Under the pieces are notes generated by a model. It was not told where the DNA came from and did no database searches. It saw only the letters and a program-made list of their open reading frames with translations. Made by a program: the position numbers and the translations under genes. A DNA stretch of 64,000 bases, taken from positions 76,603 to 140,602 of the forward strand of contig CADBGE010000001.1 in NCBI GenBank assembly GCA_902794075.1, read 5' to 3'. This stretch comes from an uncultured Erysipelotrichaceae bacterium (GTDB lineage Bacteria > Bacillota_I > Bacilli_A > RF39 > UBA660). Below, piece after piece: positions 23,901 through 50,466 of this stretch (the first letter of the stretch is position 1; the number at the start of each line of letters is the position of its first letter).

Positions 23901-26900
23901 AATTCTTCATATAATTTGGGATATAAAGATATTGCTAATATTGAACCTCTTATTGATGCTAATGAAAAAGATAATGATTTTGTAATTTATGAAATAGAAG
24001 AATCAAAAAATACACAAATAGACAATGTTGTTGGCGCAGAAATTCAGGGAAATAATATGTTCTTTGATTTTTCTCAATATAACGACAATACAGTATTATT
24101 TGATCCAAACTTTGGTATGTGGGCTGATTTTATAGGCAATAATGAAGAAAATATATTGCAAGGCTATATAAAAAATCTTTGTAGGGATGTTGCTTATGCC
24201 GGTGGATACGTGTTTAATATGGTTGGAAAACATATGTCTGAAGATCTATCAGATATGTATGGGTATGATGCAATGTATTCAAAAACGACAACAGATGAAA
24301 ATGGTAAAACACTTGAATGGGTTCCAAATTACCATTATCAGGTAAAGTATGAAGCAACCGTCGGTACAGAACGAACATATAGTTTTATAAAAGATTCATA
24401 TAATGGAACAGAAACAAATCTTCTTAGATTAATACTTCAATATGAAAATGATACTACTCAGTTAATGACACCTCCACGAATTGATTTTACATCAGTTTCA
24501 GAGTATTTCACAACTATGATGGCAATGGGTCTTGTTGATTCTCCAATGAAAAATCTAAATGTAAAATCATGGAACAATGGTCAAACATTTTACACTGCGT
24601 TTTATGATATGGACACAGGTCTTGGAAAAAACAATATAGGTACATATATAAATTATTTTGCATTTTCTGATTATTGGAAATCCAAATGGGAAAAATTAAA
24701 AAATCAACAGTCAGGAACATTAAAGCAGGTAGAAATATTAAGAGATTATTCTCCAGAAAAATTAGATGGTGATGATAAAGGTGGTTCTTCGTTTTTTGAC
24801 GTTCCGTCTACATATTTGTTTGCTGTTGTTAAATATACTAAATCTATATTATCAAGAGGTTATAAAAAAATAGAGGATGTATTAAAAGATTTTGAAAATT
24901 ATTCAAGCATATTTGAAAAAGATCCTTCAAATATATGGGGAGAATGGAGAAAAAGTAACGGTTGTTTAAGAGATGCTAAATATTTTATGAAAACATATTT
25001 TAATGATCATCTTAAAGACATACCTGAGGAGGCATTTAATTTTAATTATATATATAAATATTTTGTAAAAAATGAATCTAATAACGGTTACGATGGCGTT
25101 AATTTCATTAAATTCCATGGCAGAGGAAAGGCATACACGGAAAATTGGTTAGATTCACGTTTGCACATTCTTGATGCATATTTCAATTTAAATGGTATTG
25201 ATGACACTATAAACATTGTGAATGGTGTTGAAATTAAAGCAGCAACAGTTGATAATGCACATAAGCCAACAGATAATAAGGATGTATATGTATTACAGGA
25301 TGCATTCACTGGCAGTGCTGATCATGGTGCATACACAAAAGAAAGTAATGGAAATTTAACAATAACAGCAAAGGAATATGCTCCATTAATAATTCAATAT
25401 CCTCAGTTAAAGGAACGTTATTTGTTTCCATCAAATGGTAATCCGTCAGAAATCACTTTAAAGTTTTATAGTCCTCAAACGTGTCTGTTTGGTGGCTCTG
25501 GATTATGGACATCAATAAGTTCTATTGCACCATTTATAAATGATAAAAATTACTTTTCAATTTATTCTAAATATATATCTACTATAATTGGTACAAATAG
25601 AACATGTACAAGTTGGAATTTTGAAGCTCCATCATTAAGAATACTTAGATTAACTTCAAATAATTATAGTGGTGAAATTAGATTTGAATCTACTGATTCT
25701 GCTCCAGAATATCAAAACTTGGATGAAATAGATATATCTAATACGGGAATAAATCTTTCATTAAGTAATATTCCACTTCGTAAATTATATGCGCTTAATA
25801 TGAAGACTGGTGCGAATCTTAATGCAATAGGTTGTAACCGTCTTGAGGATGTTAAAATATCAGGTAACTTTAATTCAATATCTTTAAGTTCATGGAATAA
25901 TGTATCGGCTTTACCGACAGGAGGAAATTTAACTTGTGAAACAATATCAATAACTAATGATATAGAAAGATTTCCTGATGCGTCATTATATATATCAAAT
26001 AATAGTGAATTAAAAACAATCAATATTTCAGGATTTAGTCATTTATATATTAGCGCATGTCCAAAGTTAACAACAATTATATTTAATGATATAGAAACAT
26101 CCCCAATAAAAACTTTGGATATACAAATGCCTTCATTTAACGATGAAAACACATTTACAATTGGCAATACTGAAAATGCTGTAGATTTGTCAAATTTCAA
26201 TAATTTAACTACATTAAGACTTTCTAATCTACCGATAAAAGATTTACTATTACCGACAGGTACAGAAAATCTTGATGACGGATTTAGAAAAATAATTCTT
26301 CTGCCAGGTGCATTTTATAATTGTAAAAATCTTGAAACAATACAAAATGAAGATCACAGCGAATCTAAATTAAATAAATTATATATAACCGGAGATTCAA
26401 CATTCTTTAATTGTGGATCACATTCAGCAAACGGATATAAATTAATTAAATATGGTAAATCTGAAATATCAAATGTATATATTGATGAAACATGTATATC
26501 ATTAAAAGATACATTTAATTGTACAGATGGAAAAGGCAAAATAACATATGCTGTAGCAAAACAATTCTTACAAGAAAGATGCACAAATAGTTCTGTTGAG
26601 AATGTAACGACCATTGACAATATGTTCAGAAATAATGTAATTGAATATAATTATGCTAATTTTTATTCTGAATATTTAAGTAAAACATGTTCTTTACCAT
26701 TATACGGCTTTATAAATTGCGTTTCAGCAAATGACGTATTTTCATTAAACTCTATTAATTTCTGGAATAGATATATGTTTGAAAATGCTGATAAATCATT
26801 ATCATTATTTAAAAATTCTGACGTATTAAATCTTACTACAATGTGCAATACATTTGAATATGGAACTATAGATATATTATATCCATTTATAAATAAAACA

Positions 26901-31095: not shown

Positions 31096-32343
31096 ATGAG
31101 TAAGAGAGGACGAGTTCGAACCAAACAATCAACTACATTAATAGAAAACACATTAAGTAAAAATGGTGAACATATATGCAATTTTCTTGAAGATTTAAAT
31201 ATACCATATGAAGAATTTTATAATAAATTATACGAATATATTGATTACGATATAAAGATGATAAAGGATTGCACTGAAAAAGCAATCGTTGAATCATATA
31301 TTAAATCTATAGGGCAATTCTTTGTAGCAGAACAACGAAAAAGACTAACTCTTGAAGAAATATTAAATTCATTAAGAAACATCACAAGAAATGATCTTGC
31401 AAGCATATATGCTCCAGATATAAGTTTTGATGACACAATAGATAAATATTTTAATGATGTTAAACGTGAATACATTAAGCATCCTATGGGTGAATCAGAA
31501 ATGCTAGAAATGACTGATGAAAACCGTGATTTATTTATAAAAAACAATCTTAAGACTGTTATTGAATGCGCAAAACGATATAGGGGTTTAGGTGTTGATT
31601 TTGAAGATCTAATTCAGATAGGCAATATGGGTCTTTTAAAAGCATGGTATAAATTTGATACATCTAAATCAGATTTACAAGATAACATCATTAATGAGAT
31701 AAATGAGCATACAGCAGACGACTTTACATATAAGGATGCAGTCGATATAATAACACATAATTTCAAATATCCAAAACTTCTTGAGCAAACAATAGCAAAG
31801 ATTCCAGATAACGGGTTCTCAAATAAAGAATCGTTTATAGAATGGGCAAAGGATAACATTCGTAAAGCAAGTTTCGCAAGTCTTGGATTTATATGGGCGC
31901 GTGCAGCAATAACATCTGAACTAAATGGATTAAGTAATATCATAAGAATACCTCGTTCAATTCGTGATTCAGATGATAAGATAACATTCATAAATTTGGA
32001 TAGTATAAATCCGCATACATATGACAATTTTAATGATGACGAACTATACGAAATTTCCAATGATGCATTCGTTACTTCAGATGACAATATGGAAAACATG
32101 GAACGTAATGATATGTTTAAAGGAATAGTTAATGAATTATTAAATAAGCTTCCAAGCAAACAAAGAAGAATCATAATGAAAAGATTTGGAATTAATTTAC
32201 CATTCCCATTAAGTATTGCAGACATTTCTGAAAATGAAGGCATAAGTCAACGAGAAGTAAAAGCATTAATAGATAAGACAATGGCATTCATTGCAGAAAA
32301 TATATCTGATGAAAACAAAAAAATATTATTTGAATTGCTATAA
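31096..32343 (+). CDS. sigma-70 family RNA polymerase sigma factor
   Basis: 415 aa. Region 2 DLIQIGNMGLLKAWYKFD and region 4 HTH RRIIMKRFG...LSIADISENEGISQREVKALIDK. Confidence 0.8.
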   Translation: MSKRGRVRTKQSTTLIENTLSKNGEHICNFLEDLNIPYEEFYNKLYEYIDYDIKMIKDCTEKAIVESYIKSIGQFFVAEQRKRLTLEEILNSLRNITRNDLASIYAPDISFDDTIDKYFNDVKREYIKHPMGESEMLEMTDENRDLFIKNNLKTVIECAKRYRGLGVDFEDLIQIGNMGLLKAWYKFDTSKSDLQDNIINEINEHTADDFTYKDAVDIITHNFKYPKLLEQTIAKIPDNGFSNKESFIEWAKDNIRKASFASLGFIWARAAITSELNGLSNIIRIPRSIRDSDDKITFINLDSINPHTYDNFNDDELYEISNDAFVTSDDNMENMERNDMFKGIVNELLNKLPSKQRRIIMKRFGINLPFPLSIADISENEGISQREVKALIDKTMAFIAENISDENKKILFELL

Positions 32344-33017: not shown

Positions 33018-33653
33018 TTAATGTGACCATTTTGGAGCTTTTAATTTTGTTCCATTGGTCATTTTTCTACATTGTTGTGGTCCTAAATTGTTATTTAATT
33101 TTGATTCCCAATTGTCTATGTCTATTCCTTCAAGTGTTTCACAATCTCTAAACATTGCATTAAAATTTGTAACATTTTCAACATTCCATTTGCTAATATC
33201 TCCTATTGTCTTTAATCTTTTACATCCATCAAACATATATCCAAGATGCTTAGCTGATGTCATATTCCATTCAGATAAATCACCAATATATTTAAGATTT
33301 TTACAATCATAAAACATATCATTAAATTTTTTTATATTACTTACATCCCATTTTGAAATATCTATTGCATGCATTTTATAGTCTGATTTCTTTACGTTTT
33401 TATTAACAACGCCAAAAACAAATGATAAATCATCTAAATTAAATACATTAATATCGTTAAGGTCAACTGGTTTTTTATCGGTTCCTCCTTTTTGTTTTAT
33501 GACTAAATCTGAAATAACTTTTATAAGTTCTTCCTTTGTTTCTGGAGTATATATTTGTTCATCTTTATAGTTCTTATTAATTACAAGTTTTTCATTCACT
33601 TGTGATGGAAATATGACAAGTTTTTCAGATATGTAGGTCTTTAATGATTTCAT
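33018..33653 (-). CDS. DUF285 / BspA-type LRR protein with leader plus one FPSQV unit
   Basis: 211 aa. Starts MKSLKTYISEKLVIFPSQVNEKLVINKNYK, followed by IDISKWDVSNIKKFNDMFYDCKNLK-type repeats. Confidence 0.8.
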   Translation of the reverse strand: MKSLKTYISEKLVIFPSQVNEKLVINKNYKDEQIYTPETKEELIKVISDLVIKQKGGTDKKPVDLNDINVFNLDDLSFVFGVVNKNVKKSDYKMHAIDISKWDVSNIKKFNDMFYDCKNLKYIGDLSEWNMTSAKHLGYMFDGCKRLKTIGDISKWNVENVTNFNAMFRDCETLEGIDIDNWESKLNNNLGPQQCRKMTNGTKLKAPKWSH

Positions 33654-34186: not shown

Positions 34187-34876
34187 TTATCTTTTTCTGA
34201 CTTCTGAATACCATGCTGGCATCCTCCATCCAGTTGTTCCTGAAAAAAACATTCTAATATTTTGTCCTGTGACACTCTTATTTATTTTCCAATTATCTAA
34301 ATTTATTGGTTTAAGTTTTTCACATCCTTTAAATAAATAATTAAAATTTTTTACTTTAGAAACATTCCATTGTCCAATATCACCAATATCAGTTAATCGT
34401 TTGCAATTCTCAAACATTGATTTTATATTAACTGCGTTATTCATTTTCCAATTAGATAAGTCACCAATGTTTTTTAACATTTTGCATCCATTAAACATAT
34501 TATAAAAGTCCGTACCAGACGAAACATCCCAGTTACTTAAATCACCTATATAATGAATTGATGAGCATTCACTAAACATATTAGAAAAATCAAGTACATT
34601 ACTTACATTCCAATTACTTATATCAATATATTTAATTTTTCCATAATTAGCATAATAATAATCAGTATAATAAAATGTACTACTTAAATCTTGTACATTA
34701 GACACATCAATATCATTTAAATTTATAGGGTTTTTTTCAGATGATTCTTGTTGACCTTCAAATCTTTCTTTAAGTATTTCTATAAGTTCATGTTTATCTT
34801 TTGGATGTTCAACATAAGGCTCAACATAATCCTTATTTATCTGTAATTTTTCATTTATGAATGATGTTAATGACAT
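34187..34876 (-). CDS. DUF285 / BspA-type LRR protein with degenerate leader
   Basis: 229 aa. Starts MSLTSFINEKLQINKDY. Contains repeats such as IDISNWNVSNVLDFSNMFSECSSIHYIGDLSNWDVS. Confidence 0.8.
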   Translation of the reverse strand: MSLTSFINEKLQINKDYVEPYVEHPKDKHELIEILKERFEGQQESSEKNPINLNDIDVSNVQDLSSTFYYTDYYYANYGKIKYIDISNWNVSNVLDFSNMFSECSSIHYIGDLSNWDVSSGTDFYNMFNGCKMLKNIGDLSNWKMNNAVNIKSMFENCKRLTDIGDIGQWNVSKVKNFNYLFKGCEKLKPINLDNWKINKSVTGQNIRMFFSGTTGWRMPAWYSEVRKR

Positions 34877-38366: not shown

Positions 38367-39545
38367 TTATGCTGCAATTCTTGCTTTTATTTCATCAAGA
38401 TATTTCTTTGCTTTGTTAAGTCTGTCTTTACAATCCTCAAGTCTTGATGCAGCATCAGATCTATAATACTCACCACGTCTTTCAGGATTTTCATCTCCCT
38501 TTTCACGACCAAGTTGAACTGATTTTTCAGCGTCTTTCATACTCTTAAGATATTTGAAATAATCCTCAAATGCCGATGTAATGTAATTCATTACGTTACC
38601 GATGTTATAGCCTTCATCAATATGATCTGTATTGTCAATTATCTGTTCTGATAGTTTAAGAGCTTCATTATGAATTTTTGTGATTTCATTGAACATATAC
38701 TTTGGATTATCTTTAAGTCTCTTTGCGCGAAGTTCTTTAGCAAGTACTTGATAGTGCAATTTTTGAAGTCTAGCAAGTTCTTTTAATGATTCATCATCAT
38801 AATTTATGACACCTTTCTGAGATTCTTCTCTGTCTTTCACAAGTACATCATAATCAGTTATGAATTCATTTGGAATTTCAACAAAGTATATTTCATAATC
38901 ATTAATAAGTTCAATTAATGCGTCTACCTTAAGGTCTCCTTCTTGCCAACCACCCTTACGAAGTGGCGCAGTCTTTTTAGCAACCCTCCTATGTGAATCA
39001 CCTGATGAATTAGTCCATGCCTTAAATTCAAATGTTGAAGGTTTATATGGTTTGCCTGTTTTAGAATCATTATTTGAATATCCGCGAACAGCATATACGA
39101 TATCATGAGTCTCTGGGTCACACACAATGATTAGTCCACGAATCTTACCAGCATATAGCTGCTTAATTCTCTTATGAAGAGCATTCTCATATCCACCTTC
39201 ATAATAAGTTACATTATCATCAGTAATCTTATCCCATTGGCACCCACGAACTTTTTTCTTAGATGATCCATATCTTGAAGTTTGAACAATAGGGCCAAAC
39301 AATGAAGCAAAAGATTTTTCTGATGGTGTTATTTTTCCATATCCTTTCTCATCATATTCTTTTTGTTTTCTTATGTCTTCTGCTCTGTGTTCTTTTTCAT
39401 ATTCTTTTACTGTAGAAGCAAGTTTGCCTAATATCTTTGCCTTGAATGCTTCGTTAATCATTTCTTCACCAATGATTGATGCAGCCTCAGTAAGAATAAT
39501 ATTATCGCATTCCTTGTCAAACAAGTATTCTTTTAAGTTCTTCAT
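38367..39545 (-). CDS. hypothetical protein with leader-like N-terminus
   Basis: 392 aa. Starts MKNLKEYLFD. Confidence 0.7.
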   Translation of the reverse strand: MKNLKEYLFDKECDNIILTEAASIIGEEMINEAFKAKILGKLASTVKEYEKEHRAEDIRKQKEYDEKGYGKITPSEKSFASLFGPIVQTSRYGSSKKKVRGCQWDKITDDNVTYYEGGYENALHKRIKQLYAGKIRGLIIVCDPETHDIVYAVRGYSNNDSKTGKPYKPSTFEFKAWTNSSGDSHRRVAKKTAPLRKGGWQEGDLKVDALIELINDYEIYFVEIPNEFITDYDVLVKDREESQKGVINYDDESLKELARLQKLHYQVLAKELRAKRLKDNPKYMFNEITKIHNEALKLSEQIIDNTDHIDEGYNIGNVMNYITSAFEDYFKYLKSMKDAEKSVQLGREKGDENPERRGEYYRSDAASRLEDCKDRLNKAKKYLDEIKARIAA

Positions 39546-39601
39546 ATTATGAAATAGTATATTTTACAACATTATATATTAAAAATAAATTATTAAAACA
39601 C

Positions 39602-39627
39602 AAAAAAGGAACCCATTTCTGAGTTCC
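39602..39627 (-). terminator. terminator candidate downstream of the tmRNA
   Basis: On the minus strand, ggaac-tcagaaatgg-gttcc followed by TTTTTT, 24 nt after the tmRNA CCA end. Confidence 0.5.
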
Positions 39628-39651: not shown

Positions 39652-40035
39652 TGGTGGACCTTGAGGGAATCGAACCCTCGTCCAAGCAATTCAACCTATC
39701 AGCTTTCTACATGCTTGTTTCGTTCGTTAATTTCGGTAACAATCAGCCAAACGAACAAAACCGACCTTTTACCTATCTCATTATGTGAATCTACTCGACG
39801 GTATACTTGAGAGTCCTACCCCGTCCAGTCATCTGTAACAATGCGCTGTATATTCTTAAACCCAGTGACCAAATTTTTGAACCAGCGTCAAGCAGTCAAT
39901 CCTAGATCAAGCTGCGAGAGCAAAAGTATCTTCGCCATCTAAAAGTGTCAATCGAAAGTTTAAAGAGTTCTTCACGATCATTCCTCTGCATGCTTACCAA
40001 TTTGTCAACATTGCTGTCAAATCCAAGTAAGGCCC
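39652..40035 (-). ncRNA. ssrA: tmRNA (ssrA), phage-encoded, tag GEDTFALAA
   Basis: 5' GGGCCUUACUUGGAUUUGACAGC and ...GCAUGCAGAGG resemble the tmRNA consensus. 3' GGACGAGGGUUCGAUUCCCUCAAGGUCCACCA has a T-arm and an encoded CCA. The acceptor GGGCCUU/AAGGUCC contains G3:U70. The tag frame GGC GAA GAU ACU UUU GCU CUC GCA GCU UGA lies at 39936-39907. Confidence 0.9.
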
Positions 40036-40058
40036 ATGTTTTACATTTTATAATATAT

Positions 40059-40087
40059 AATATATAAATTATTAGAAAAAAATTCAA
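40059..40087 (-). promoter_or_regulatory. sigma-70-like promoter TTGAAT-N17-TATATT upstream of the tmRNA
   Basis: Minus strand: TTGAAT (40087-40082), 17 nt, TATATT (40064-40059), 23 nt before the mature tmRNA 5' G at 40035. Confidence 0.55.
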
Positions 40088-40092
40088 TATCT

Positions 40093-40707
40093 TTATTCTA
40101 TTATGAACATGTACCAATATTCCATGTATTCTTTTCCATTGTAATTGACATGCATATTAAGTTTCAATAAATTACATTTATGTTTACCTAATTGTTCTTC
40201 CCATACTGTTGCAGTGCAATTCATTTTCTGATGTATGATTCTTGATTTCCATGTATCTGTTATATCATTTATAAATTTTGGAACAATCTTATCTAATGCA
40301 TCAAAACTATCATAATTTTTCCAGCCAACTACAATGTTACCATCACAAAATCGTTCAATTACTTCATACATATCGTCAGACTTTCCAAAATTGTCTTCCC
40401 AAGGTTCAAAATAGTCTCTGACTGTAAACTCTTCTGAATCATCCCAAAGAGCAGGATCATTCTTGCCTGATTTTGCAATGTATTCAACCGTATCATACAA
40501 GTCGTCATCACTATTTATAGATTCAATTTTATCAAACACTTCATTATTATATAATTTAGTGTTTTTATTTATGACAAGTTTTTCATTCACTTGCGATGGA
40601 AATATGACAAGTTTTTCATCTACTTGTGATGGACGTATTATTAGTTTTTCATTTATTGAAATCGAAGGTTGCTTCTTATATTTTAGATATTGTTTTAATG
40701 TTTTCAT
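40093..40707 (-). CDS. hypothetical protein, leader with two FPSQV-type units
   Basis: 204 aa. Starts MKTLKQYLKYKKQPSISINEKLIIRPSQVDEKLVIFPSQVNEKLVINKN. Confidence 0.7.
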   Translation of the reverse strand: MKTLKQYLKYKKQPSISINEKLIIRPSQVDEKLVIFPSQVNEKLVINKNTKLYNNEVFDKIESINSDDDLYDTVEYIAKSGKNDPALWDDSEEFTVRDYFEPWEDNFGKSDDMYEVIERFCDGNIVVGWKNYDSFDALDKIVPKFINDITDTWKSRIIHQKMNCTATVWEEQLGKHKCNLLKLNMHVNYNGKEYMEYWYMFIIE

Positions 40708-43275: not shown

Positions 43276-43537
43276 AATCTTAAAATGTTTAATTTAAATT
43301 AGTTAATATATAATATTTATGTTTATTGTAATTATAATATAGAAAAGTAAAACTAAAAAATTTCAATATTTTAGGATTCTTTTTTCATATGTTCCATTAT
43401 TTTTTACTATGTTGATACCGTTAAACGGATGATTAGATGAATGTCCTTGAAGATCGTAATAGATCATATCATCATTATCATTATGATTAATCATATTATC
43501 ATGAATATTGTTTACACAAGTTAATTTTTAATTTTAG

Positions 43538-43609
43538 TTGCCTCGCCAGGATTCGAACCTGAACCAACAGCTCCAAAAACTGTTGTGCTTACCGTTACAC
43601 CATGAGGCA
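43538..43609 (-). tRNA. tRNA-Gln(TTG)
   Basis: 72 nt. Acceptor tgcctca/cgaggca, D arm gtgt-aacggtaa-gcac, anticodon arm acagt-ttTTGga-gctgt, T arm tcagg-ttcgaat-cctgg. Confidence 0.85.
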
Positions 43610-43620
43610 AAATAAAAAAT

Positions 43621-43815
43621 GTGAGTAGATTTACGAGCTACGGACTGTGAAGGATTTATGAACTTATCAACCTTCTCTGTTGCGTTGCCTCTTATGGCCT
43701 CTCACGATAACCAACACGTTTCATCAAGCGAGGATATATTCTCCAGTCTACATACAATAATTACACCGGTTCATTATCATACTTACACTGATCCTACTCA
43801 GTGGTCTATACTCAC
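43621..43815 (-). ncRNA. structured non-coding module (about 195 nt) closed by a terminal helix
   Basis: No credible ORF here. gtgagta (43621-43627) pairs with tactcac (43809-43815), and internal hairpins are present. Lies between the GIY-YIG gene and tRNA-Gln. Strand inferred from context. Confidence 0.3.
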
Positions 43816-43919
43816 ATTTTATATTTTCCATAATATATTCAAAGTGATGGTTAAACATCATCGCAAATTCACACGGATTAATACGATATCCTTTTAAGAC
43901 AAGTTGCTATATTATGGAT

Positions 43920-45035
43920 TTATTTTTTAAATGGTTTTCCAAATTTCCAACCATTATTTAAATATTCTTCAAATTTTTCTTTCGGTAATCTTATTACTTC
44001 ATCATCTTTATACATCCATTTTCTACCTTTATGTGGACTTGTTCCTTTTTGTTTCCAATGTTTATTTTTGTTTACTCCAACAAATTCTCCAGATATATAT
44101 CGTTTATCTGTTTTATCAACAAAAAATGTATTACCATTATTATCTTTAACGGCTACTTTATTTTTCATATATTCATAATCATTATTTCTAAATTTGATAA
44201 TTTCACCGGTTTTAAATCTTGGATCATTTTTATTAACTAATCCTAATTTATTTCCATTCTTGTCTATGGCAGGTATTTTGTTTTTGTAATATGATACAAA
44301 TTCACCAGATATATATCGTTCGTCTGTTTTATCAACAAAAAATACATTACCATTATTATCTTCAACAAGGATATGTGTTTTATAAAAATTACTATAATCT
44401 TTTTGTGACCCAATTTTTCGTTCAATTTTATTTTCTGTTTTTTCAGTTCGACCAATTTTATATCCTTTATCTAAATAATACTGTAATTTATCTTTTTGAA
44501 TAAATTTTGTTTCATCATCATTATGAATCCAAACTTTATTACTTGATGCAATTTTATGTTTTGTAGTGTCATTAACTTTAAAACCTTTGTTCCATCCATT
44601 AGATAAATATATTTCTAAATCTTCTCGTTTTATTCTTTTATTTATATAAACATTATTTTCAATTTTATAAATACAAACAGTATTATATTGAGAATTTTTT
44701 TCTCCTTTTTGTTTTTCAGAATTAATTTGTCCAATATGTTTTAACAGTTCTTCATCTAAATAATAACCACCAGGAACCATATTATAACAATTATTATCAT
44801 TAACTAATTCTTCTGTTACAATAGATTTTTCAAGTTGACAAAGCTCATTCCAATCATTACAGTATTGTATAATTTCTTTAGTAAAATTTTCTATACCGTA
44901 TTTTTTATAAGCCGCATGTAATCGTTTTCCAGAACCCATGTACCCATCATCTAAATTTGATGTTTTGTGAATTCCGTAATAAAAATGATTATTTACATTA
45001 TTTGTTATTTTATATAAATAAAAATATGTTTTCAT
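43920..45035 (-). CDS. GIY-YIG homing endonuclease (Seg-like)
   Basis: 371 aa. N-terminus YLYKITNNVNNHFYYGIHKT...GYMGSGKRLHAAYKKYGIENF is a GIY-YIG module. The C-terminal half is repetitive (FFVDKTDxRYISGEFV). Embedded in the tRNA array. Confidence 0.8.
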   Translation of the reverse strand: MKTYFYLYKITNNVNNHFYYGIHKTSNLDDGYMGSGKRLHAAYKKYGIENFTKEIIQYCNDWNELCQLEKSIVTEELVNDNNCYNMVPGGYYLDEELLKHIGQINSEKQKGEKNSQYNTVCIYKIENNVYINKRIKREDLEIYLSNGWNKGFKVNDTTKHKIASSNKVWIHNDDETKFIQKDKLQYYLDKGYKIGRTEKTENKIERKIGSQKDYSNFYKTHILVEDNNGNVFFVDKTDERYISGEFVSYYKNKIPAIDKNGNKLGLVNKNDPRFKTGEIIKFRNNDYEYMKNKVAVKDNNGNTFFVDKTDKRYISGEFVGVNKNKHWKQKGTSPHKGRKWMYKDDEVIRLPKEKFEEYLNNGWKFGKPFKK

Positions 45036-45095
45036 AATTAAAATCCATTAACCATTTATATATATAAAAATAAAATAATTAATGAAATAATTTTG

Positions 45096-45181
45096 TACCG
45101 GGAACAGGAATTGCACCTGCACTTCCTTCACAGGAAAACAGATTTTAAGTCTGTCGCGTCTACTTGTTTCGCCATCCCGGC
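45096..45181 (-). tRNA. tRNA-Leu(TAA), class II, non-canonical D and T loops
   Basis: 86 nt. Acceptor gccggga/tcccggt, anticodon arm acaga-ctTAAaa-tctgt, 17-nt variable arm. T loop is tgcaatt and the D loop aaacaagtaga lacks GG. Confidence 0.75.
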
Positions 45182-45195
45182 AGAGAATATTTTAG

Positions 45196-45267
45196 AGCCG
45201 CTACTCCGAATCGAACGGAGATCTCATGATTACAAGTCAAGCGTAATAACCTTTATACTATAGCGGC
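45196..45267 (-). tRNA. tRNA-Thr(TGT)
   Basis: 72 nt. Perfect acceptor gccgcta/tagcggc, anticodon arm cttga-ctTGTaa-tcatg (one U-U mismatch), T arm ctccg-ttcgatt-cggag. Confidence 0.75.
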
Positions 45268-45302
45268 AATTTATATAATTAATATAATAATGTTTTTATA
45301 AT

Positions 45303-45857
45303 TTATTCAAAGCATTCACTATATTTTTCAATATCTTCTACAGAAAAATATTTCTTATATTTCTCAAGAATTTTCAGTCCATGCTCATGAATATACTCAA
45401 GTAATGGATTTGAGTTCTTCAGTCCTCCTGATTCAAAATTATAAAAATATATTATTGCATCAAGATTATCAATAAAGTCACCTCTAACATCAATATCATT
45501 ACTAAATAGCCAATCAACAAAATCCTCATATAATTTATGATAACCATTCCAAGAACATATATTTCTATTCTTTCTATCTATATGTTTTGATTGATCCTTC
45601 ATTCTAATAAGATTTATTTCGTCATAACACAAAATTTCATCAAGTGCTATTTCAAAATTAAATTTAGAAAAAGGTCTTTTATCATTACTAAGATAAATGT
45701 GTATATGAGGTCTTTGCCTATCTCCGGCATTAGTTCCATGAACAGTAATATAATAATCTATTTTATTTAGTACAGGATATCCTATACTTGCCATTTCTAC
45801 TACATAATCCCATTCAGGATTGAACTGTTCATCCACGTATGTATTTAGATGTTTCAT
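45303..45857 (-). CDS. hypothetical protein with leader-like N-terminus
   Basis: 184 aa. Starts MKHLNTYVDE. Located between tRNA sub-clusters. Confidence 0.65.
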   Translation of the reverse strand: MKHLNTYVDEQFNPEWDYVVEMASIGYPVLNKIDYYITVHGTNAGDRQRPHIHIYLSNDKRPFSKFNFEIALDEILCYDEINLIRMKDQSKHIDRKNRNICSWNGYHKLYEDFVDWLFSNDIDVRGDFIDNLDAIIYFYNFESGGLKNSNPLLEYIHEHGLKILEKYKKYFSVEDIEKYSECFE

Positions 45858-45872
45858 TTTTATTATATTTTG

Positions 45873-45947
45873 TGGTCCCTGACGGCGCCGCCCCGTCCAC
45901 CCCGAAATTAAAAGTTTCGTGCTCTACTAATCATGAGCTAAGGAACC
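45873..45947 (-). tRNA. tRNA-Lys(TTT) with aberrant T loop
   Basis: 75 nt. Acceptor ggttcct/agggacc, anticodon arm cgaaa-ctTTTaa-tttcg. The T arm is gacgg-GGCGGCG-ccgtc (no TTC) and the D loop atgattagta lacks GG. Confidence 0.65.
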
Positions 45948-45953
45948 TATTTG

Positions 45954-46026
45954 AGCAGATGACGTGATTCGAACACGCAACTTTCAGATTGGAAATCTGA
46001 CGCTCTGCCAATTGAGTTACATCTGC
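45954..46026 (-). tRNA. tRNA-Trp(CCA)
   Basis: 73 nt. Acceptor gcagatg/catctgc, anticodon arm tcaga-ttCCAaa-tctga, T arm gcgtg-ttcgaat-cacgt. Confidence 0.85.
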
Positions 46027-46031
46027 AGCTG

Positions 46032-46115
46032 TGGGAGCGGGTCGACTCGAACGACCAGTCCAATTAAGGAATGGATTTACAGTCCATGCGGCTTCCAGTT
46101 ACCGGTTACGCTCCC
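46032..46115 (-). tRNA. tRNA-Tyr(GTA), class II
   Basis: 84 nt. Acceptor gggagcg/cgctccc, anticodon arm atgga-ctGTAaa-tccat, long variable arm, T arm ggtcg-ttcgagt-cgacc. Confidence 0.85.
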
Positions 46116-46130
46116 AATATTAAAGATTAG

Positions 46131-46296
46131 TCAGGTAAGATGGAATTGAACCACCACTAATATAAATTGATATTTTTAGATTTAGTACAATTAACATAAA
46201 CTACCAAATTCATATTACCTTTTATCCTTCCTGTACACACTATAGATAAAAACCTCCCATACCATCATGGGTGTGCTACCGTTACACCATTACCTG
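46131..46296 (-). ncRNA. tRNA-like gene with about 95-nt internal insertion, anticodon unassigned
   Basis: Perfect acceptor caggtaa/ttacctg, D arm gtgt-aacggta-gcac, T arm ggtgg-ttcaatt-ccatc. The anticodon-position hairpin cccat-gatggt-atggg has a 6-nt loop, and about 95 nt (two hairpins) lie between the variable-loop position and the T arm. Confidence 0.4.
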
Positions 46297-46301
46297 ATAT
46301 A

Positions 46302-46631
46302 TTATTCTTTAACGTCTTTAGACATAATAACTTCATCAGGATAAAATTCTAAAAATGTTTTAAGTACTTCATTATAAAATATATAAGTAACTAAGCCTTT
46401 TCTTGATGAAGTAATTGTTTTACTTAATGTGAAGTAATACTTTTCCGATTTGCCAATCATAGTCTTTCCAAGATCCCATACAATAATTGGTAAAACATTT
46501 CTATCGATCATATCAGAAATCTTTTTAATTATTTCATCAGATTTCATATTAGGTAAAGTACCATATATATGAATGATATTAGAACAATTAGATTTTGATT
46601 TTGTCTTAAATAATGAACTAAGAATATTCAT
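46302..46631 (-). CDS. hypothetical protein
   Basis: The track ORF 46302..46667 starts at a GTG that overlaps tRNA-Pro. The first ATG (MNILSSLFK...) is at 46631. Confidence 0.5.
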   Translation of the reverse strand: MNILSSLFKTKSKSNCSNIIHIYGTLPNMKSDEIIKKISDMIDRNVLPIIVWDLGKTMIGKSEKYYFTLSKTITSSRKGLVTYIFYNEVLKTFLEFYPDEVIMSKDVKE

Positions 46632-46652
46632 GATTAATTCTTTAAATATTTT

Positions 46653-46728
46653 TGGTAGGGTAAACACGGCTCGAACGTGCGACCTCTACATCCCAAATGT
46701 AGCATTCTACCTACTGAACTATTACCCT
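46653..46728 (-). tRNA. tRNA-Pro(TGG), CCA encoded
   Basis: 76 nt. Acceptor agggtaa/ttaccct, anticodon arm ctaca-ttTGGga-tgtag, T arm gcacg-ttcgagc-cgtgt, 3' ACCA. Confidence 0.85.
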
Positions 46729-46839
46729 TGGCGCCGCCTTACTTATATTTTTACATTCAGTATATATCCTGAACACTGGGGCCGTGCGGCATGTTCTTTA
46801 TGAAGCTTCTCCCCATCTATTGGCCGAATAGAGTATGTG

Positions 46840-46914
46840 CGGTGCGTACGGGACTCGAACCCGTGACCTCCTGCGTGACAGACAGGCATTCCAAACCAAC
46901 TGAACTAACGCACC
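46840..46914 (-). tRNA. tRNA-Asp(GTC)
   Basis: 75 nt. Acceptor ggtgcgt/acgcacc, anticodon arm cctgt-ctGTCac-gcagg, T arm acggg-ttcgagt-cccgt. Confidence 0.85.
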
Positions 46915-46920
46915 AAAATA

Positions 46921-46988
46921 TGTTTGATTTATCATCGTGCTACCGTTACACTAAGGAGTCGAACCTAATCTTATGATATAATCAAACA
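46921..46988 (-). ncRNA. permuted tRNA-like element: long closing helix + T arm + D arm, no acceptor stem
   Basis: Minus-strand RNA: tgtttgattatatcat-aaga-[ttagg ttcgact cctta]-[gtgt aacggta gcac]-g-atgataaatcaaaca. The ends pair over about 15 bp. The D-arm sequence is identical to that of element 46131..46296. Confidence 0.35.
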
Positions 46989-47019
46989 CCTTAAAAATTC
47001 ACGTGAACTTTAATTTTTG

Positions 47020-47088
47020 TGGGAAACAGAGGACTCGAACCTCCTAATAGATTGTGATTATCTGCAGTTTCAAAATCTAATACCACCC
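47020..47088 (-). ncRNA. tRNA-like element (canonical T arm, weak acceptor, no D arm)
   Basis: The 3' part is ggagg-ttcgagt-cctct-gtttccc-a. An upstream 6-bp stem tagatt/aatcta encloses 20 nt beginning ttGAAac (Phe-like). The 5' strand gggtggt pairs only with wobbles. Confidence 0.3.
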
Positions 47089-47153
47089 AATTTTAAATTC
47101 AATTATGTACACTCGTTGAATACAAATTTTGTGTAGAATCCCATATTTAAAAG

Positions 47154-47227
47154 TTGCGTGGGGTCAGATTCGAACTGACGACCTTCTGCTTATGAGACAG
47201 ACGAGCTGACCACTGCTCCACCCCGCA
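47154..47227 (-). tRNA. tRNA-Met(CAT) (fMet-like body, bulged acceptor)
   Basis: 74 nt. TGCGGGGTGGAGCAGTGGTCAGCTCG... closely resembles the E. coli tRNA-fMet 5' half. Anticodon arm tctgt-ctCATaa-gcaga, T arm gtcag-ttcgaat-ctgac. The acceptor 3' strand ccc-a-cgca has one bulged A. Confidence 0.65.
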
Positions 47228-47245
47228 ATATATTTATCTATTTAG

Positions 47246-47332
47246 ATGCCACCGAAGGAATCGAACCTCCACCCGAATCACCAGGGATGTACCTGCGGGT
47301 TCCCATGTGTATGCAGCTAACATACGGTGGCA
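47246..47332 (-). ncRNA. tRNA-like element, 87 nt, anticodon unassigned
   Basis: Acceptor tgccacc/ggtggca and T arm ggagg-ttcgatt-ccttc are canonical. The remainder (gtatg-ttagctg-catac hairpin, acccg...cgggt helix) does not fit a D/anticodon arm layout. Confidence 0.35.
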
Positions 47333-47380
47333 ATATAAAAAATTGAAATCCCTATAGGTAAATGTAAATCATCATTCATA

Positions 47381-47450
47381 ATCAATAGATGGGATTCGAA
47401 CCCATAATCTCTGAACGTTACAGCGGTAATACCGTTTGCCTAACTAATGA
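47381..47450 (-). ncRNA. tRNA-like element, 70 nt, anticodon unassigned, embedded in a longer closing helix
   Basis: Acceptor tcattag/ctattga (one U-U mismatch) and T arm atggg-ttcgaat-cccat. No 5+7+5 anticodon arm found. Flanks pair: ttgaaatc (47343-47350) with gatttcaa (47473-47480), and aatgtaaat with atttacatt. Confidence 0.35.
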
Positions 47451-47490
47451 CTGGTGAACAATCATTTACATTGATTTCAATTTTTATTTT

Positions 47491-47610
47491 AAAGTTGAAA
47501 TTCTTGCAAGATTGAATGCTTATCTCGGGATGATCTTCTGTCATCTCTGAGGTTGATTTTCCCCAGAACCATTATCAGTGTTCTACATCCGCATTCAAAA
47601 TTTCAACTTT
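47491..47610 (-). ncRNA. structured spacer module closed by a 20-bp interrupted helix
   Basis: aaagttgaaatt..ttgaatgc (47491-47520) pairs with gcattcaa-aatttcaacttt (47591-47610). Two internal hairpins: 7-bp tctgggg/cctcaga, and gatga/tcatc with a 7-nt loop. Confidence 0.3.
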
Positions 47611-47614
47611 ATTG

Positions 47615-47689
47615 TACTGCCAACGGGACTCGAACCCGTAATCTCCGCCGTGAAAGGGCGACGTCCTAAACCAATTAGACGATGGCAGC
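47615..47689 (-). tRNA. tRNA-Glu(TTC)
   Basis: 75 nt. Acceptor gctgcca/tggcagt (G1-U72), anticodon arm tcgcc-ctTTCac-ggcgg, T arm acggg-ttcgagt-cccgt. Confidence 0.8.
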
Positions 47690-47919
47690 ATATTGAGATT
47701 TCACAGTAATCTCAAAACTGTATACGTGAGCAATTTGATATGGAGTGTACTGCTCATTGATTCATGTTGTGATCTCAACAGTTATCTCTCCTGAATGGAA
47801 CATTATCCGGAATAATTCCAAACCATCGGACCTTACTCAGATTTGAATTACATCAGGGATCTCTCAGGAAAATTTCCGAGGCTGATTTGTATCTGCAATA
47901 AAACCAGCAAACATTTTTG

Positions 47920-47991
47920 CGCTTGTGGAGAATTACGATATCCCGACCTAGTGGTTAACAGCCACTCGCTCTACCTCTGAGCTACACAAGC
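47920..47991 (-). tRNA. tRNA-Asn(GTT) with unusual T loop
   Basis: 72 nt. Perfect acceptor gcttgtg/cacaagc, anticodon arm agtgg-ctGTTaa-ccact. T arm gggat-atcgtaa-ttctc (A at position 54, 53-61 unpaired). Confidence 0.7.
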
Positions 47992-48000
47992 ATATTTCAT

Positions 48001-48103
48001 AATCAACCGAACTTATCGTCACTTCATCGATAACATAGCACTTTGTGCCTCATTTATCATTACAAACAGAAGTTAGACTAAACAAAACGTTTAACTGTTG
48101 ATT
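48001..48103 (-). ncRNA. structured spacer module closed by a 7-bp helix
   Basis: aatcaac (48001-48007) pairs with gttgatt (48097-48103). Internal hairpin ttatcg/cgataa. Lies between tRNA-Asn and tRNA-Val. Confidence 0.25.
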
Positions 48104-48114
48104 ACGAAGTTTTG

Positions 48115-48189
48115 TGGGCAATGTTGGATTCGAACCAACGACCCCTTGCTTGTAAGGCAAGTGCTCTGAACCAGCTGAGCTAATTCCCC
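48115..48189 (-). tRNA. tRNA-Val(TAC)
   Basis: 75 nt. Acceptor ggggaat/attgccc (one G-G mismatch), anticodon arm cttgc-ctTACaa-gcaag, T arm gttgg-ttcgaat-ccaac. Confidence 0.8.
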
Positions 48190-48276
48190 AGAAAAGTGGT
48201 GTCCTAACAATTAAACGACAAATTTTAAAAAATTTGATTGAGTTCATACCCCAATATCTCCACCAAAATAATTTAC

Positions 48277-48385
48277 GAAACTGACATATTGAAATTCTGT
48301 GCAGTAAACCATGAATTGTAATTTAGTACGTTCTACTAAGTGCACCAATTATTCTAAGGTTAATTTCAACTTAGGTATCAGTTTC
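48277..48385 (-). ncRNA. structured spacer module closed by an 8-bp helix
   Basis: gaaactga (48277-48284) pairs with tcagtttc (48378-48385). A nested 8-bp helix ttgaaatt/aatttcaa and the hairpin tagta-cgttc-tacta are also present. Confidence 0.3.
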
Positions 48386-48386
48386 T

Positions 48387-48504
48387 AAATGAGAATAAAC
48401 AATACTTACGAATTGCCACCAATAAGCATCGTATAAAGAAATAAGGGAGTCTATAAGGAGGCAATTTTCTCTGCTTATACTTGCCTTTCATTCTATTCTC
48501 ATTT
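48387..48504 (-). ncRNA. structured spacer module closed by a 10-bp helix, pseudoknot-like interior
   Basis: aaatgagaat (48387-48396) pairs with attctcattt (48495-48504). Inside, aattgcc...ataagca...ggcaatt...tgcttat are interleaved 7-bp complements. Confidence 0.3.
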
Positions 48505-48506
48505 TG

Positions 48507-48595
48507 CGGAAGCTGAGGGATTCGAACCCCCGGAACCTTGTTAAGGCTCGCCGGTTTTCAAGACCGGTGCAATCGACCAACTCTGCCAAACTTCC
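48507..48595 (-). tRNA. tRNA-Ser(TGA), class II
   Basis: 89 nt. Acceptor ggaagtt/agcttcc, anticodon arm ccggt-ctTGAaa-accgg, long variable arm, T arm ggggg-ttcgaat-ccctc. Close to E. coli tRNA-Ser(UGA). Confidence 0.85.
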
Positions 48596-48911
48596 GTAAT
48601 ATTAAATAATATAAAAATAAGTGTGTTGTTAAACCAAAAAATCCATAGTGTTCTTATGAACGTATGTGATCTTGACCAGAACAACTAAGGCCATTATATC
48701 ACATTACTCAGGTTCCGCCTGAACTGTTCCTGCAACCTCTTTCACTATTTGTCATGGATTTGATTTCAGCTACTTGAGACAGTTCTGATACTTTCAGACA
48801 TAGTTACAATTTACTCTTTAAAAGATGGACACTTTCAATCCCACTTCCTTATTTATATTATCGTATTCAGTATTTCCAACATGTCAAAGAACTTTGTTTT
48901 GTTGTTTTTAT
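48596..48911 (-). ncRNA. promoter-proximal leader RNA upstream of tRNA-Ser (paralogue of 50467..50720)
   Basis: No credible ORF here. Shares the 15-mer ccaacatgtcaaaga (48876-48890), ttgtcatggattt (48749-48761) and gcaacctc (48732-48739), in the same order, with the 50.5-50.7 kb segment. Preceded by a consensus promoter. Confidence 0.35.
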
Positions 48912-48917
48912 ATAATC

Positions 48918-48946
48918 AATATATAAATGATTATATGAAAATTCAA
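48918..48946 (-). promoter_or_regulatory. sigma-70-like promoter TTGAAT-N17-TATATT
   Basis: Minus strand: TTGAAT (48946-48941), 17 nt, TATATT (48923-48918). Drives the leader RNA / tRNA-Ser sub-cluster. Confidence 0.55.
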
Positions 48947-49004
48947 ACTTTTTTAATTTTTTGCACCCGAAGTGAAACTCGTCATCTCAGCAAAATATTT
49001 TAAG

Positions 49005-49079
49005 TGGACCCAGAGGGTCATGATCCCCCGACCTTGACATTATGAGTGTCCTGCTCTATACCAACTGAGCTATGGGTCC
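49005..49079 (-). tRNA. tRNA with CAT anticodon (Met or Ile2), unusual T loop
   Basis: 75 nt. Perfect acceptor ggaccca/tgggtcc, anticodon arm ggaca-ctCATaa-tgtca (27-43 mismatch), T arm ggggg-atcatga-ccctc (A at position 54). Confidence 0.65.
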
Positions 49080-49960
49080 TATTTCATTTTTCTACCTTTT
49101 ATCCAACCGTTGTTAATATAATCATTAAGTTCTTCTTTTTTAATTTTTATATTAATTGGTTTATTATTTTCATCAAATTTATAAATCCAGCATGTCCCGT
49201 ATTGTGAATTATTTTTACCCTTACCGTGATTTATTAATTTATATGTTTCTTTTTGTTTTTTAATTGATTCAGGTTTATGTTTTCTTCCAGTCCATATACA
49301 TTTTAATTCTCCAGATAAATATCTTGGATCATCAACTGAAACAGAATAATAATTTCCGTTTTTATCTTTTACAGATACTTTATTTTTTCCTAAAGCAATA
49401 TATTCACCAGATATATATCTTGGATCATCAACTGAAACAGAATAATAATTTCCATTTTTATCTTTTACTGTTATTTTGTTTTTTGTTAAAGCTTCATAAA
49501 TTTCTTTGTTATATTCTTCCTTTTTTATCATCAAATGTTCTCCTGTTGATTTTATTTTTACAGGAATTAAACCTTTTGTTGATGGTGTGTATTCACCGCT
49601 CATATATTTTGGATCATTTTTTGAACATCTAAAATAGTTTCCGTCTTTATCTTTTACAGGCACAGAACCATACGTATTCCATCCTTTTCCGCCACATTGA
49701 ATATTATAACATTCAGGATCATGAACTAAATCTTCTGTAACAATTTCAGATTCATATTGATATGCCTCATTTATAGTATTAAAATATTTTAATATTTCTT
49801 TACTAAAGTTTTCAATACCATATTTCTTATATGCATATTTTAATCTTGTGCCTGAACCCATATATCCATCATCTAAATTATCTGTACAATGTACACCATA
49901 ATAAAAATGATTATTTATATTATTTGTTATTTTATAGAAATAATTGTATTTTCTTTTCAT
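49079..49960 (-). CDS. GIY-YIG homing endonuclease (Seg-like), second copy
   Basis: The track ORF starts at TTG 49969. The ATG at 49960 gives MKRKYNYFYKITNNINNHFYYGVHCT...GYMGSG...YGIENF. The TAG stop abuts the tRNA 5' end. C-terminal repeats KDKNGNYYSVSVDDPRY(I/L)SGE. Confidence 0.8.
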   Translation of the reverse strand: MKRKYNYFYKITNNINNHFYYGVHCTDNLDDGYMGSGTRLKYAYKKYGIENFSKEILKYFNTINEAYQYESEIVTEDLVHDPECYNIQCGGKGWNTYGSVPVKDKDGNYFRCSKNDPKYMSGEYTPSTKGLIPVKIKSTGEHLMIKKEEYNKEIYEALTKNKITVKDKNGNYYSVSVDDPRYISGEYIALGKNKVSVKDKNGNYYSVSVDDPRYLSGELKCIWTGRKHKPESIKKQKETYKLINHGKGKNNSQYGTCWIYKFDENNKPINIKIKKEELNDYINNGWIKGRKMK

Positions 49961-50032
49961 AATGTTCAATGATATTTTATATATATTTATATTGAACTAT
50001 ATAATTAAAAATAATAAATTATTTCTAATTAG

Positions 50033-50106
50033 TAGGGATGATGGGTACTGCCCCCACTATCTCGAATTTATAAGATTCGCGCTTCTACTGTCTAAGCTAC
50101 ATCCCA
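50033..50106 (-). tRNA. tRNA-Ile(TAT) with aberrant T loop
   Basis: 74 nt. Anticodon arm cgaat-ctTATaa-attcg, acceptor gggatg/catccc (6 bp plus a terminal U-U). T arm gtggg-GGCAGTA-cccat, and the D loop agacagtag lacks GG. Confidence 0.6.
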
Positions 50107-50113
50107 ATGTTTG

Positions 50114-50187
50114 TGGAGCCATGGGGAGTCGAACCCCAGACCTTCTGCGTGCAAAGCAGACGCTCTACCAAACTGAGCTATGACCCC
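50114..50187 (-). tRNA. tRNA-Ala(TGC)
   Basis: 74 nt. Acceptor ggggtca/tggctcc with G3:U70, anticodon arm tctgc-ttTGCac-gcaga, T arm tgggg-ttcgact-cccca. Confidence 0.85.
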
Positions 50188-50190
50188 ATA

Positions 50191-50382
50191 AAAGTAAAAT
50201 GTTCTACACGCTCTGACTTTCACAGATACCCTCTAAAGATTTTAAAATCTCCCTTTAGCAAGGATTCCTTACCAAATATACAGATGCAACTCTGCCCCTT
50301 GCTTCCGCTCCATCACAGGCATACTTTATCAGCAGACGGTAAGATCTCTAATAAATTTCCTGTACCTCGAACTATTTACTTT
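50191..50382 (-). ncRNA. structured spacer module (about 190 nt) closed by an 8-bp helix
   Basis: aaagtaaa (50191-50198) pairs with tttacttt (50375-50382). Internal palindrome agattttaaaatct flanked by ctaaag/ctttag. Lies between tRNA-Leu(TAG) and tRNA-Ala. Confidence 0.3.
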
Positions 50383-50385
50383 TTG

Positions 50386-50466
50386 TACCCCATCTCCGAC
50401 TCGAACGGAGACCCAGTAAAGGATGGCTTCTAAGGCCACTGACTATACCAATTCGTCTAATGGGGT
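50386..50466 (-). tRNA. tRNA-Leu(TAG), class II
   Basis: 81 nt. Acceptor accccat/atggggt, anticodon arm gtggc-ctTAGaa-gccat, 12-nt variable arm, T arm ctccg-ttcgagt-cggag. Confidence 0.8.

Follow-up and report, generated by a model that had tools for sequence, protein, structure and literature searches.

A one-piece tmRNA gene of Bacteroidota type on a gut megaphage contig

The window, which is the whole stretch of 64,000 nucleotides (nt) of contig CADBGE010000001.1 analysed here (64 kb), carries on its minus strand a gene for transfer-messenger RNA (tmRNA, ssrA) between two protein genes with no assigned function. The interval 39652..40035 is a complete phage-encoded tmRNA. The sections below describe its sequence and fold, its conservation in related phages, its kinship with the tmRNAs of Bacteroidota and the role that it probably plays during infection.

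The tmRNA locus and its contig

ARAGORN identifies 39652..40035 (-) as a one-piece tmRNA gene of 384 nt with the tag GEDTFALAA*. Consistently, the Rfam covariance model RF00023 matches the same interval with 118.8 bits and an E value of 8.1e-46 over model positions 1-374, that is, at full length. The curated gathering score of this model is 47 bits, and the region scores well above it. An earlier note made from the letters of this DNA had claimed a 384-nt minus-strand tmRNA with the tag GEDTFALAA and had named these two programs as checks; both are positive, at the same coordinates and with the same tag. A two-piece (permuted) tmRNA is rejected, as the ARAGORN gene is unpermuted and the RF00023 alignment is colinear. 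The G+C content of the gene is 42%, compared with 27-33% in its flanks.

When the Rfam consensus structure is laid on the 384-nt RNA, 73 standard pairs form. They comprise a 7-bp acceptor stem, a canonical T arm, a long helix 2 and one stem for each pseudoknot (PK). The acceptor stem consists of G1-C380, G2-C379, G3:U378, C4-G377, C5-G376, U6-A375 and U7-A374, and G3:U at this place is the alanine identity pair. This pair, the T arm and the encoded CCA, all claimed in the earlier note, are read directly from the sequence (Table 1). The H-type PK1 was completed by hand by pairing its AGAG with CUCU, and GCAUGCAGAGG occupies gene positions 43-53. UAGAU lies directly 5' of the tag frame and places U and A at positions -5 and -4 relative to the resume codon. 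In Escherichia coli tmRNA, U85 and A86 are the -5/-4 positions that set the resume frame (Miller et al. 2008, PMC2481249).

Table 1. Coordinates of the tmRNA gene, its structural elements and other features of the window
Feature	Coordinates	Strand	Remarks
tmRNA gene (ssrA)	39652..40035	-	384 nt
Acceptor 5' strand	40029..40035	-	GGGCCUU; G3 at 40033 pairs with U378 at 39658
PK1	39951..39987	-	AGAG/CUCU (49-52 with 69-72) and AUCG.G/U.CGAU (57-62 with 80-85)
U and A at -5/-4	39941-39940	-	
Tag frame	39936-39907	-	GGC GAA GAU ACU UUU GCU CUC GCA GCU UGA; GEDTFALAA and stop
T arm	39679-39663	-	GAGGG-UUCGAUU-CCCUC
Acceptor 3' strand	39662-39656	-	
Discriminator A381	39655	-	
Encoded CCA	39654-39652	-	
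Intrinsic terminator	39601..39627	-	GGAACUCAGAAAUGGGUUCC followed by UUUUUU; 24 nt past CCA; found by scan
Promoter-like element	40059..40087	-	TTGAATTTTTT-N-TTTATATATT (TTGAAT-N17-TATATT); 23 nt 5' of the mature end
Recurrent motif, TTGAAT starts	57782, 53268, 51028, 48946, 40087, 10432, 7766, 2768, 326	-	
Mechanical open reading frame	39902..40117	-	71 amino acids, TTG start; overlaps 5' third of tmRNA; not a gene
Downstream neighbour	38367..39545	-	392-amino-acid protein, no assigned function; no Pfam or PHROG match; synteny anchor
Upstream neighbour	40093..40707	-	204-amino-acid protein, no assigned function
17-tRNA array	43537..50466	-	GIY-YIG homing endonuclease genes interspersed; same strand as tmRNA
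Rfam-only tRNA Asn(GUU)	47920-47991	-	non-canonical T loop
Rfam-only tRNA Ile(UAU)	50033-50106	-	non-canonical T loop
DUF285/BspA-type loci	10475-11221, 33018-33653, 34187-34876, 61468-62112, 62109-63999		

The source contig is with high confidence that of a phage. The protein encoded by the downstream neighbour, 392 amino acids (aa) in length, is matched in every residue by one encoded on a 400,026-bp ENA contig (ERZ27280413 k141_844548), where the window corresponds by calculation to roughly 29,158-93,157 in reverse orientation. It is also identical on contigs from two other samples, and all three carry an identical tmRNA. The base composition averages ~29% G+C and is uniform across the window. 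Phage-type genes lie on both sides of the tmRNA, and the genes of the window include those for T4-type topoisomerase II subunits, an NAD-dependent DNA ligase, an RNA ligase and a sigma factor, together with large proteins in which short segments match tail-fibre families, homing endonucleases (GIY-YIG and others) and many DUF285/BspA-like repeat proteins. With tblastn, the large subunit of the topoisomerase is closest to that of the Prevotella Lak megaphages, with 52-54% aa identity over the whole protein. No related phage is found when the locus is compared with INPHARED by megablast and blastn, and the 392-aa neighbour has no homologue in IMG/VR or among deposited phages. The source is placed as a gut megaphage of ~400 kb, and thus larger than 200 kb, that is a distant relative of the Prevotella Lak phages.

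A terminator and a promoter-like element flank the gene. The terminator claimed in the earlier note, a hairpin followed by a T-run, is real and conserved: its hairpin is kept with loop changes in the related loci L204 and L129, and L201 has a different hairpin with a T-run. The claim of a TTGAAT-N17-TATATT promoter stands in part. The element is present and belongs to a recurrent strand-specific motif, but hexamer pairs of this type alone occur at chance level in AT-rich DNA (29 sites in 4 kb versus 27.6 expected). The extended motif TTGAATTT[TC]-N8-12-T[TA]TAT[AT]T has six copies on the minus strand of the window and none on the plus strand, compared with a mean of 0.135 and a maximum of 2 in 200 Markov simulations, and all six copies are upstream of minus-strand genes. 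Because it is strand-specific and so far above expectation, it is probably a genuine promoter class of the phage. In its intergenic form on the minus strand, the recurrent motif reads TTGAATTTT(Y)-N8-9-TTTATATWTTATA, often with TGTAA next, and it is perhaps read by a phage sigma factor encoded at 31096-32343.

The mechanical open reading frame that covers the 5' third of the tmRNA is rejected as protein-coding. Its frame differs from the tag frame, stops interrupt it in L129, L227 and L127, and the gene calls of the source contig include none in this interval, so that the earlier description of it as an artefact is borne out.

Conservation in related phages and kinship with Bacteroidota

Related loci were reached through homologues of the 392-aa neighbour (34-95% identity), and their flanks were searched for tmRNA. 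A tmRNA is located at or beside the syntenic position in eight of 11 lineages, the window included, over neighbour identities of 47-100%. The allele of L228, whose neighbour is 94% identical, is itself 96% identical to that of the window and encodes the same tag. GEDTYALAA is encoded in L227 (neighbour 81%; 441 nt), L204 (79%) and L203 (49%), and GENTYALAA in L200-202 (47%). L129 (82%) has the tag GKNTLALAA in an allele of 507 nt that is detected by Rfam only, and L127 (47%) has GKDNFALAA in a gene that lies inside a tRNA cluster.

Structure was counted over the Rfam-derived pairs and PK1 on an alignment of the eight sequences; for PK2-PK4 the counts cover one stem each, not the second (knot-forming) stems. 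Standard pairs occupy 92.1% of the pair cells, compared with 34-43% after the 3' partners have been shifted by 1-3 columns. Compensatory changes on both sides occur at 23 pairs, compared with 3-9 after the same shifts, and for all five measures used the observed value is matched in no shuffle out of 500. Covariation backs helix 2, the two stems of PK1 and a single stem in each of PK2-PK4. The first stem of PK1 is invariant, and the second has three pairs with compensatory changes. G3:U is kept in all seven relatives that cover the region. Among the sequences that cover these features, the resume codon is GGC in eight of eight, and U and A stand at -5/-4 in seven of seven, L203 having no upstream bases. 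The ALAA codons of the eight alleles differ by synonymous changes only (CTC/CTT, GCA/GCG/GCT and GCT/GCA/GCC) and are followed by TGA or TAA, and tag positions 2-5 vary among the phage alleles (E/K, D/N, T/N and F/Y/L). The conservation of pairing together with the purely synonymous changes in ALAA shows that the gene is under selection as a working tmRNA, in its fold as well as in the peptide that it encodes.

CCA is encoded in the window and L201 only. It is not encoded in L228, L227, L204, L129, L127 and L203, so that these six of the seven relatives must rely on CCA addition. Because L228 has a 96%-identical tmRNA without it, the encoded CCA is not a required feature.

The two expanded alleles, at L129:3397-3903 (507 nt) and L227:1375-1815 (441 nt), have in common hairpins after the tag stop and in PK2, and L129 has in addition two TTTCGTTGAAAACGAAA hairpins in tandem ahead of helix 2. 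The alleles look mosaic, with L227 combining L129-like insertions with PK3/PK4 like those of L204. Rfam tRNA matches that span ~146 nt are present at L129:2330-2476 and L204:447-592, and point to a tRNA gene split by an intron or insertion; none equivalent occurs in the window. A gene for TnpB/OrfB_IS605 (Cas12f-like) at L124:1139-2449 (-) lies ~1.5 kb upstream of the syntenic position, which in that lineage has no tmRNA.

By its sequence motifs and tag family, the tmRNA is of Bacteroidota type. It has the architecture of the Bacteroidota tmRNAs in RF00023, with the same G3:U pair, the same discriminator A and a tag of the form G-E-x-x-[YF]-A-L-A-A, and UGGAUUUGACAGC, GGUAAGCAUGCAG, AAGCAUGUAGAAAGC and UUGGACGAGGGUUCGAUUCCCUC are common to both. 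The tmRNAs of Bacteroidales carry the UGGAUUUGACAGC, GUAAGCAUGCAG and UUUGGACGAGGGUUCGAUUCCCUC blocks of the phage and differ at acceptor positions 4-7. A 3' motif, GCATGTAGAAAGC...GGACGNGGGTTC, was found at at least 120 loci, and among the 83 titles listed from these, all are Bacteroidota except one Chlorobiota. In these loci, GENNYALAA predominates among the ARAGORN tags (37), and GENNFALAA, GENTYALAA and GETNYALAA also occur. The earlier note had likened the tag to low-GC bacterial tags, but its family is specifically that of Bacteroidota and not generically low-GC.

However, the overall identity of the phage RNA to sampled bacterial tmRNAs is only 47-56%, compared with a median of 57% between bacteria. 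By region, identity to Bacteroidota tmRNAs is 86-97% in the T arm and acceptor, 64-82% in the tag region and 34-40% in PK2-PK4, which are essentially unalignable. The acceptor is GGGCCUU/AAGGUCC in the phage and GGGGNUG/CAGCUCC in Bacteroidota, helix 2 is AU-rich in the phage, and the phage RNA is encoded on a megaphage whereas that of Bacteroidota is encoded on the chromosome. In any synonymous spelling, the GEDTFALAA tag occurs 0 times in IMG/VR and 0 times in a set of 185,579 genomes, each from a different species. Because of this absence from the species genomes and the identity of only 47-56%, the tmRNA is old in the phage lineage and not a recent capture. The Bacteroidota-type RNA together with the kinship to Lak phages suggests that the host is probably a member of Bacteroidales, such as Prevotella.

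A search of IMG/VR and the JGI metagenomes with the T-arm/acceptor pattern returned mostly tRNAs and, as tmRNAs, only three others of low G+C. These are L161:7265-7562, L188:4375-4666 (-) and L175:1384-1778, on other low-GC metagenomic contigs, one of 101 kb. They are short tmRNAs (~292-298 nt, tag AEDNTYRMAA) or a long-tag tmRNA beside tRNA clusters, and their acceptor/T-arm sequence is the same as that of the window phage.

Probable role of the tmRNA and alternative explanations

The tmRNA genes of phages were said in the earlier note to occur in a minority of them. This is right, yet such genes are known for huge phages, where tmRNA and SmpB are listed among the translation genes (Al-Shayeb et al. 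2020, PMC7162821), and for Bacillus phage G and the Bxz1-like (cluster C) mycobacteriophages (PMC4131195, PMC12484599). The window phage resembles the former: it is huge, low in G+C and from the gut, and it carries many tRNAs along with other genes for translation. The Bxz1-like phages and phage G are likewise large virulent phages with a complete tmRNA of predicted function beside many tRNAs, but they belong to other host phyla and have unrelated tags (in phage G, AKLNITNNELQVA), and their tmRNAs show no similarity to that of the window beyond the T arm. Consistently, blastn finds no match of the window tmRNA among deposited phages beyond the T arm. The crAss-like phages cr114_1, cr125_1 and cr131_1 and Chryseobacterium phage MA9V-3 have an annotated SsrA and, like the window phage, (presumed) Bacteroidota hosts. 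However, ARAGORN describes their RNAs as permuted two-piece ones with the atypical tags GNFYVTDYTRIAA and GNVIDINKYVAKLEVAA, whereas the RNA of the window is one-piece with a canonical ALAA. A phage tmRNA as such is thus already known in huge phages, and what is found here is a canonical one-piece tmRNA of Bacteroidota type in a Lak-related lineage.

Among deposited phages, the Lak phages are the nearest relatives, and Lak-A1 also has a tmRNA, together with smpB. Its tmRNA, at MK250015.1 223026-223421 (L212:25026-25421 (-)), scores 54 bits with RF00023 and is missed by ARAGORN. The tag, read by eye, is DDEIDFRMAA and ends in RMAA. The Lak-A1 record is unannotated, and the tmRNA is near two suppressor tRNAs with a CUA anticodon. 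This tmRNA belongs to a different, weaker-scoring lineage than that of the window (54 versus 118.8 bits), and it is not syntenic, the 392-aa neighbour having no homologue in any deposited phage. Furthermore, Lak-A1 has suppressor tRNAs, whereas none is present in the window, where TAA, TGA and TAG all terminate long open reading frames. Stop-codon recoding is rejected for the window because all three stops are in use and there is no suppressor tRNA, and the region therefore uses the standard code.

The smpB gene of Lak-A1, at MK250015.1 507067-507534 (-) (L218), encodes a protein ~64-66% identical to SmpB of Bacteroidales. It was found with E 2.6e-22 by the same query that was used for the window, an E. 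coli SmpB sequence run with phmmer; the window was searched in addition by Pfam scans of 40 open reading frames. A cluster of 147-aa SmpB proteins (P0113; L219-L226) is encoded on phage-like loci of ~26-27% G+C with DUF285 genes, on contigs of up to 364-474 kb whose sample accessions are close to those of the window phage. This SmpB may belong to the same phage group as the window, but no P0113 contig is linked to that of the window, and none of the P0113 loci has the promoter motif. The genes that flank SmpB loci on related contigs resemble the DUF285/BspA family of the window.

We consider it quite probable that the gene is a functional phage-borne ssrA, whose product acts as a standard trans-translation RNA and keeps ribosomes free during infection. 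The RNA would be transcribed from the minus strand, probably from the TTGAAT...TATATT element at 40087-40059, and transcription would most likely end at the hairpin and T-run at 39627-39601. RNase P would remove a 5' leader of ~17 nt, and the 3' trailer would be trimmed to CCA. The following steps of charging, ribosome entry and tagging are established tmRNA biology applied to the phage RNA. The tRNA-like domain, with its G3:U, discriminator A and T arm, would be charged with alanine by the alanyl-tRNA synthetase of the host and would bind SmpB, either that of the host or a phage SmpB from another part of the 400-kb genome. The complex of tmRNA and SmpB would enter ribosomes stalled on broken or stop-less mRNAs, translation would resume at GGC to append (A)GEDTFALAA, and release would occur at UGA, the ALAA tail marking the peptide for host proteases. 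Alongside the 17 tRNAs, the tmRNA would most likely keep ribosomes available in the long, translation-heavy infection by a megaphage, in which host mRNA would be degraded and the supply of host tmRNA may fail once host transcription stops.

Several observations count against this assignment. The functional role rests on conservation, and the gene is not conserved throughout: no tmRNA is present in the available flanks of L205 (neighbour identity 88%), L124-126 (76%) and L128 (34%), and from this absence in three lineages the tmRNA is dispensable or mobile. Some alleles have acquired hairpin insertions that extend them to 441 and 507 nt. No SmpB homologue (PF01668) is found among the open reading frames of the 64-kb window, nor is a capsid or terminase gene recognised within it. 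As for transcription, the extended motif is not kept upstream of the tmRNA in L204, L129 and L127, and the housekeeping promoters of Bacteroidota are not known to be of the sigma-70 -35/-10 type.

A gene with such a presence/absence pattern resembles accessory counter-defence genes, and instead of adding general translation capacity the tmRNA could mainly free ribosomes that host abortive-infection RNases or toxin mRNA interferases have stalled, or stand in for host tmRNA depleted or cleaved on infection. Its position fits such a role, in that tRNA arrays may buffer tRNA-targeting defences and the tmRNA is on the same strand as, and ~3.5 kb downstream of, the 17-tRNA array. Furthermore, a host tmRNA-specific nuclease could miss a phage RNA with the acceptor GGGCCUU in place of GGGGNUG and with PK2-PK4 at 34-40% identity. 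However, no defence or anti-defence gene is identified beside the tmRNA, and nucleases that target tmRNA are not known from Bacteroidota. Counter-defence is, besides, a special case of standard trans-translation that is inseparable from it by sequence alone, and as a specific role it is unlikely. A decoy is less likely still. Such an RNA would compete for SmpB, alanyl-tRNA synthetase or EF-Tu and would damp host trans-translation, or would reroute tagged proteins through a tag with DTF in place of NNY. A phage tmRNA that consists of the tRNA-like domain only can inhibit tmRNA, perhaps by titrating SmpB, as proposed for mycobacteriophage DS6A (PMC4131195), and both the lack of smpB in the 64-kb window and the variable tag positions 2-5 would suit a competitor. 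However, the phage RNA has kept a full mRNA-like domain, and the resume codon, U-A at -5/-4, ALAA, the stop and PK1 are conserved; a pure decoy needs none of these.

The higher G+C content of the gene (42% within flanks of 27-33%) and the frequent use of ssrA genes as attB sites (PMC11915505) would be in keeping with a host ssrA beside a prophage, an assembly chimera or a decaying captured copy. This explanation is highly improbable and already largely refuted. The gene is full-length, its 3' end occurs once only in the window, its two flanks both carry phage-type genes, and composition is uniform across the 64 kb. Its identity to bacterial tmRNAs is only 47-56%, and the same gene with the same flanks is present in three independent samples. 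Diverged relatives have the gene as well, with compensatory changes. An ssrA-derived attP is rejected as well, on the full-length gene, the single 3' end and the same 47-56% identity.

Beyond the standard function, the Lak-related megaphage clade could keep a diversifying trans-translation system of its own, with exchange of modules, gains of hairpins and variation of tag positions 2-5 while ALAA is kept, and maybe with a phage SmpB. The tmRNA would then be a component of an arms race and not extra capacity. This extension is doubtful, although we hold it slightly less unlikely than a dedicated counter-defence role. If true, the system would allow the phage to take over ribosome rescue in Bacteroidales or to escape defences that act by stalling or by depletion of tmRNA.

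The understanding of how tmRNA works is not changed by a phage-borne ssrA with standard function. It extends the translation genes known from uncultured gut megaphages by a tmRNA well supported by covariation, and its Bacteroidota-type sequence and tag provide an independent signal of host phylum for a 400-kb phage without a cultured relative. The Lak-A1 gene and the insertion-bearing L129 allele are seen by the covariance model only, which indicates that surveys based on ARAGORN undercount phage tmRNAs. Trans-translation is little studied in Bacteroidales, and the allele set, with five tags and lengths of 380-507 nt, forms a natural mutagenesis series for tmRNA features in this group. The series with its modular hairpin insertions, the pattern of presence and absence and the genes missed by ARAGORN are of modest extra interest.

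tRNA array and repeated elements of the window

The tRNA array comprises 15 tRNAs called by ARAGORN and 14 by Rfam, two of which are not in the ARAGORN list (Table 1). Two GIY-YIG genes inside it, at 43920-45035 (-) and 49079-49969 (-), are paralogous and have a 252-nt repeat with 75% identity. The two genes for topoisomerase II subunits (13247-15163 and 8627-10051) are separated by another homing endonuclease gene, at 12107-13231.

The DUF285/BspA-type leucine-rich-repeat family has a period of 81 nt and occupies at least five loci. Two giant open reading frames are adjacent on the plus strand, at 15536-20875 (+) and 20955-29339 (+), and encode 1779 aa and 2794 aa, respectively. The 2794-aa product has no PHROG match, and the 1779-aa product has only short matches to tail-fibre-like domains.

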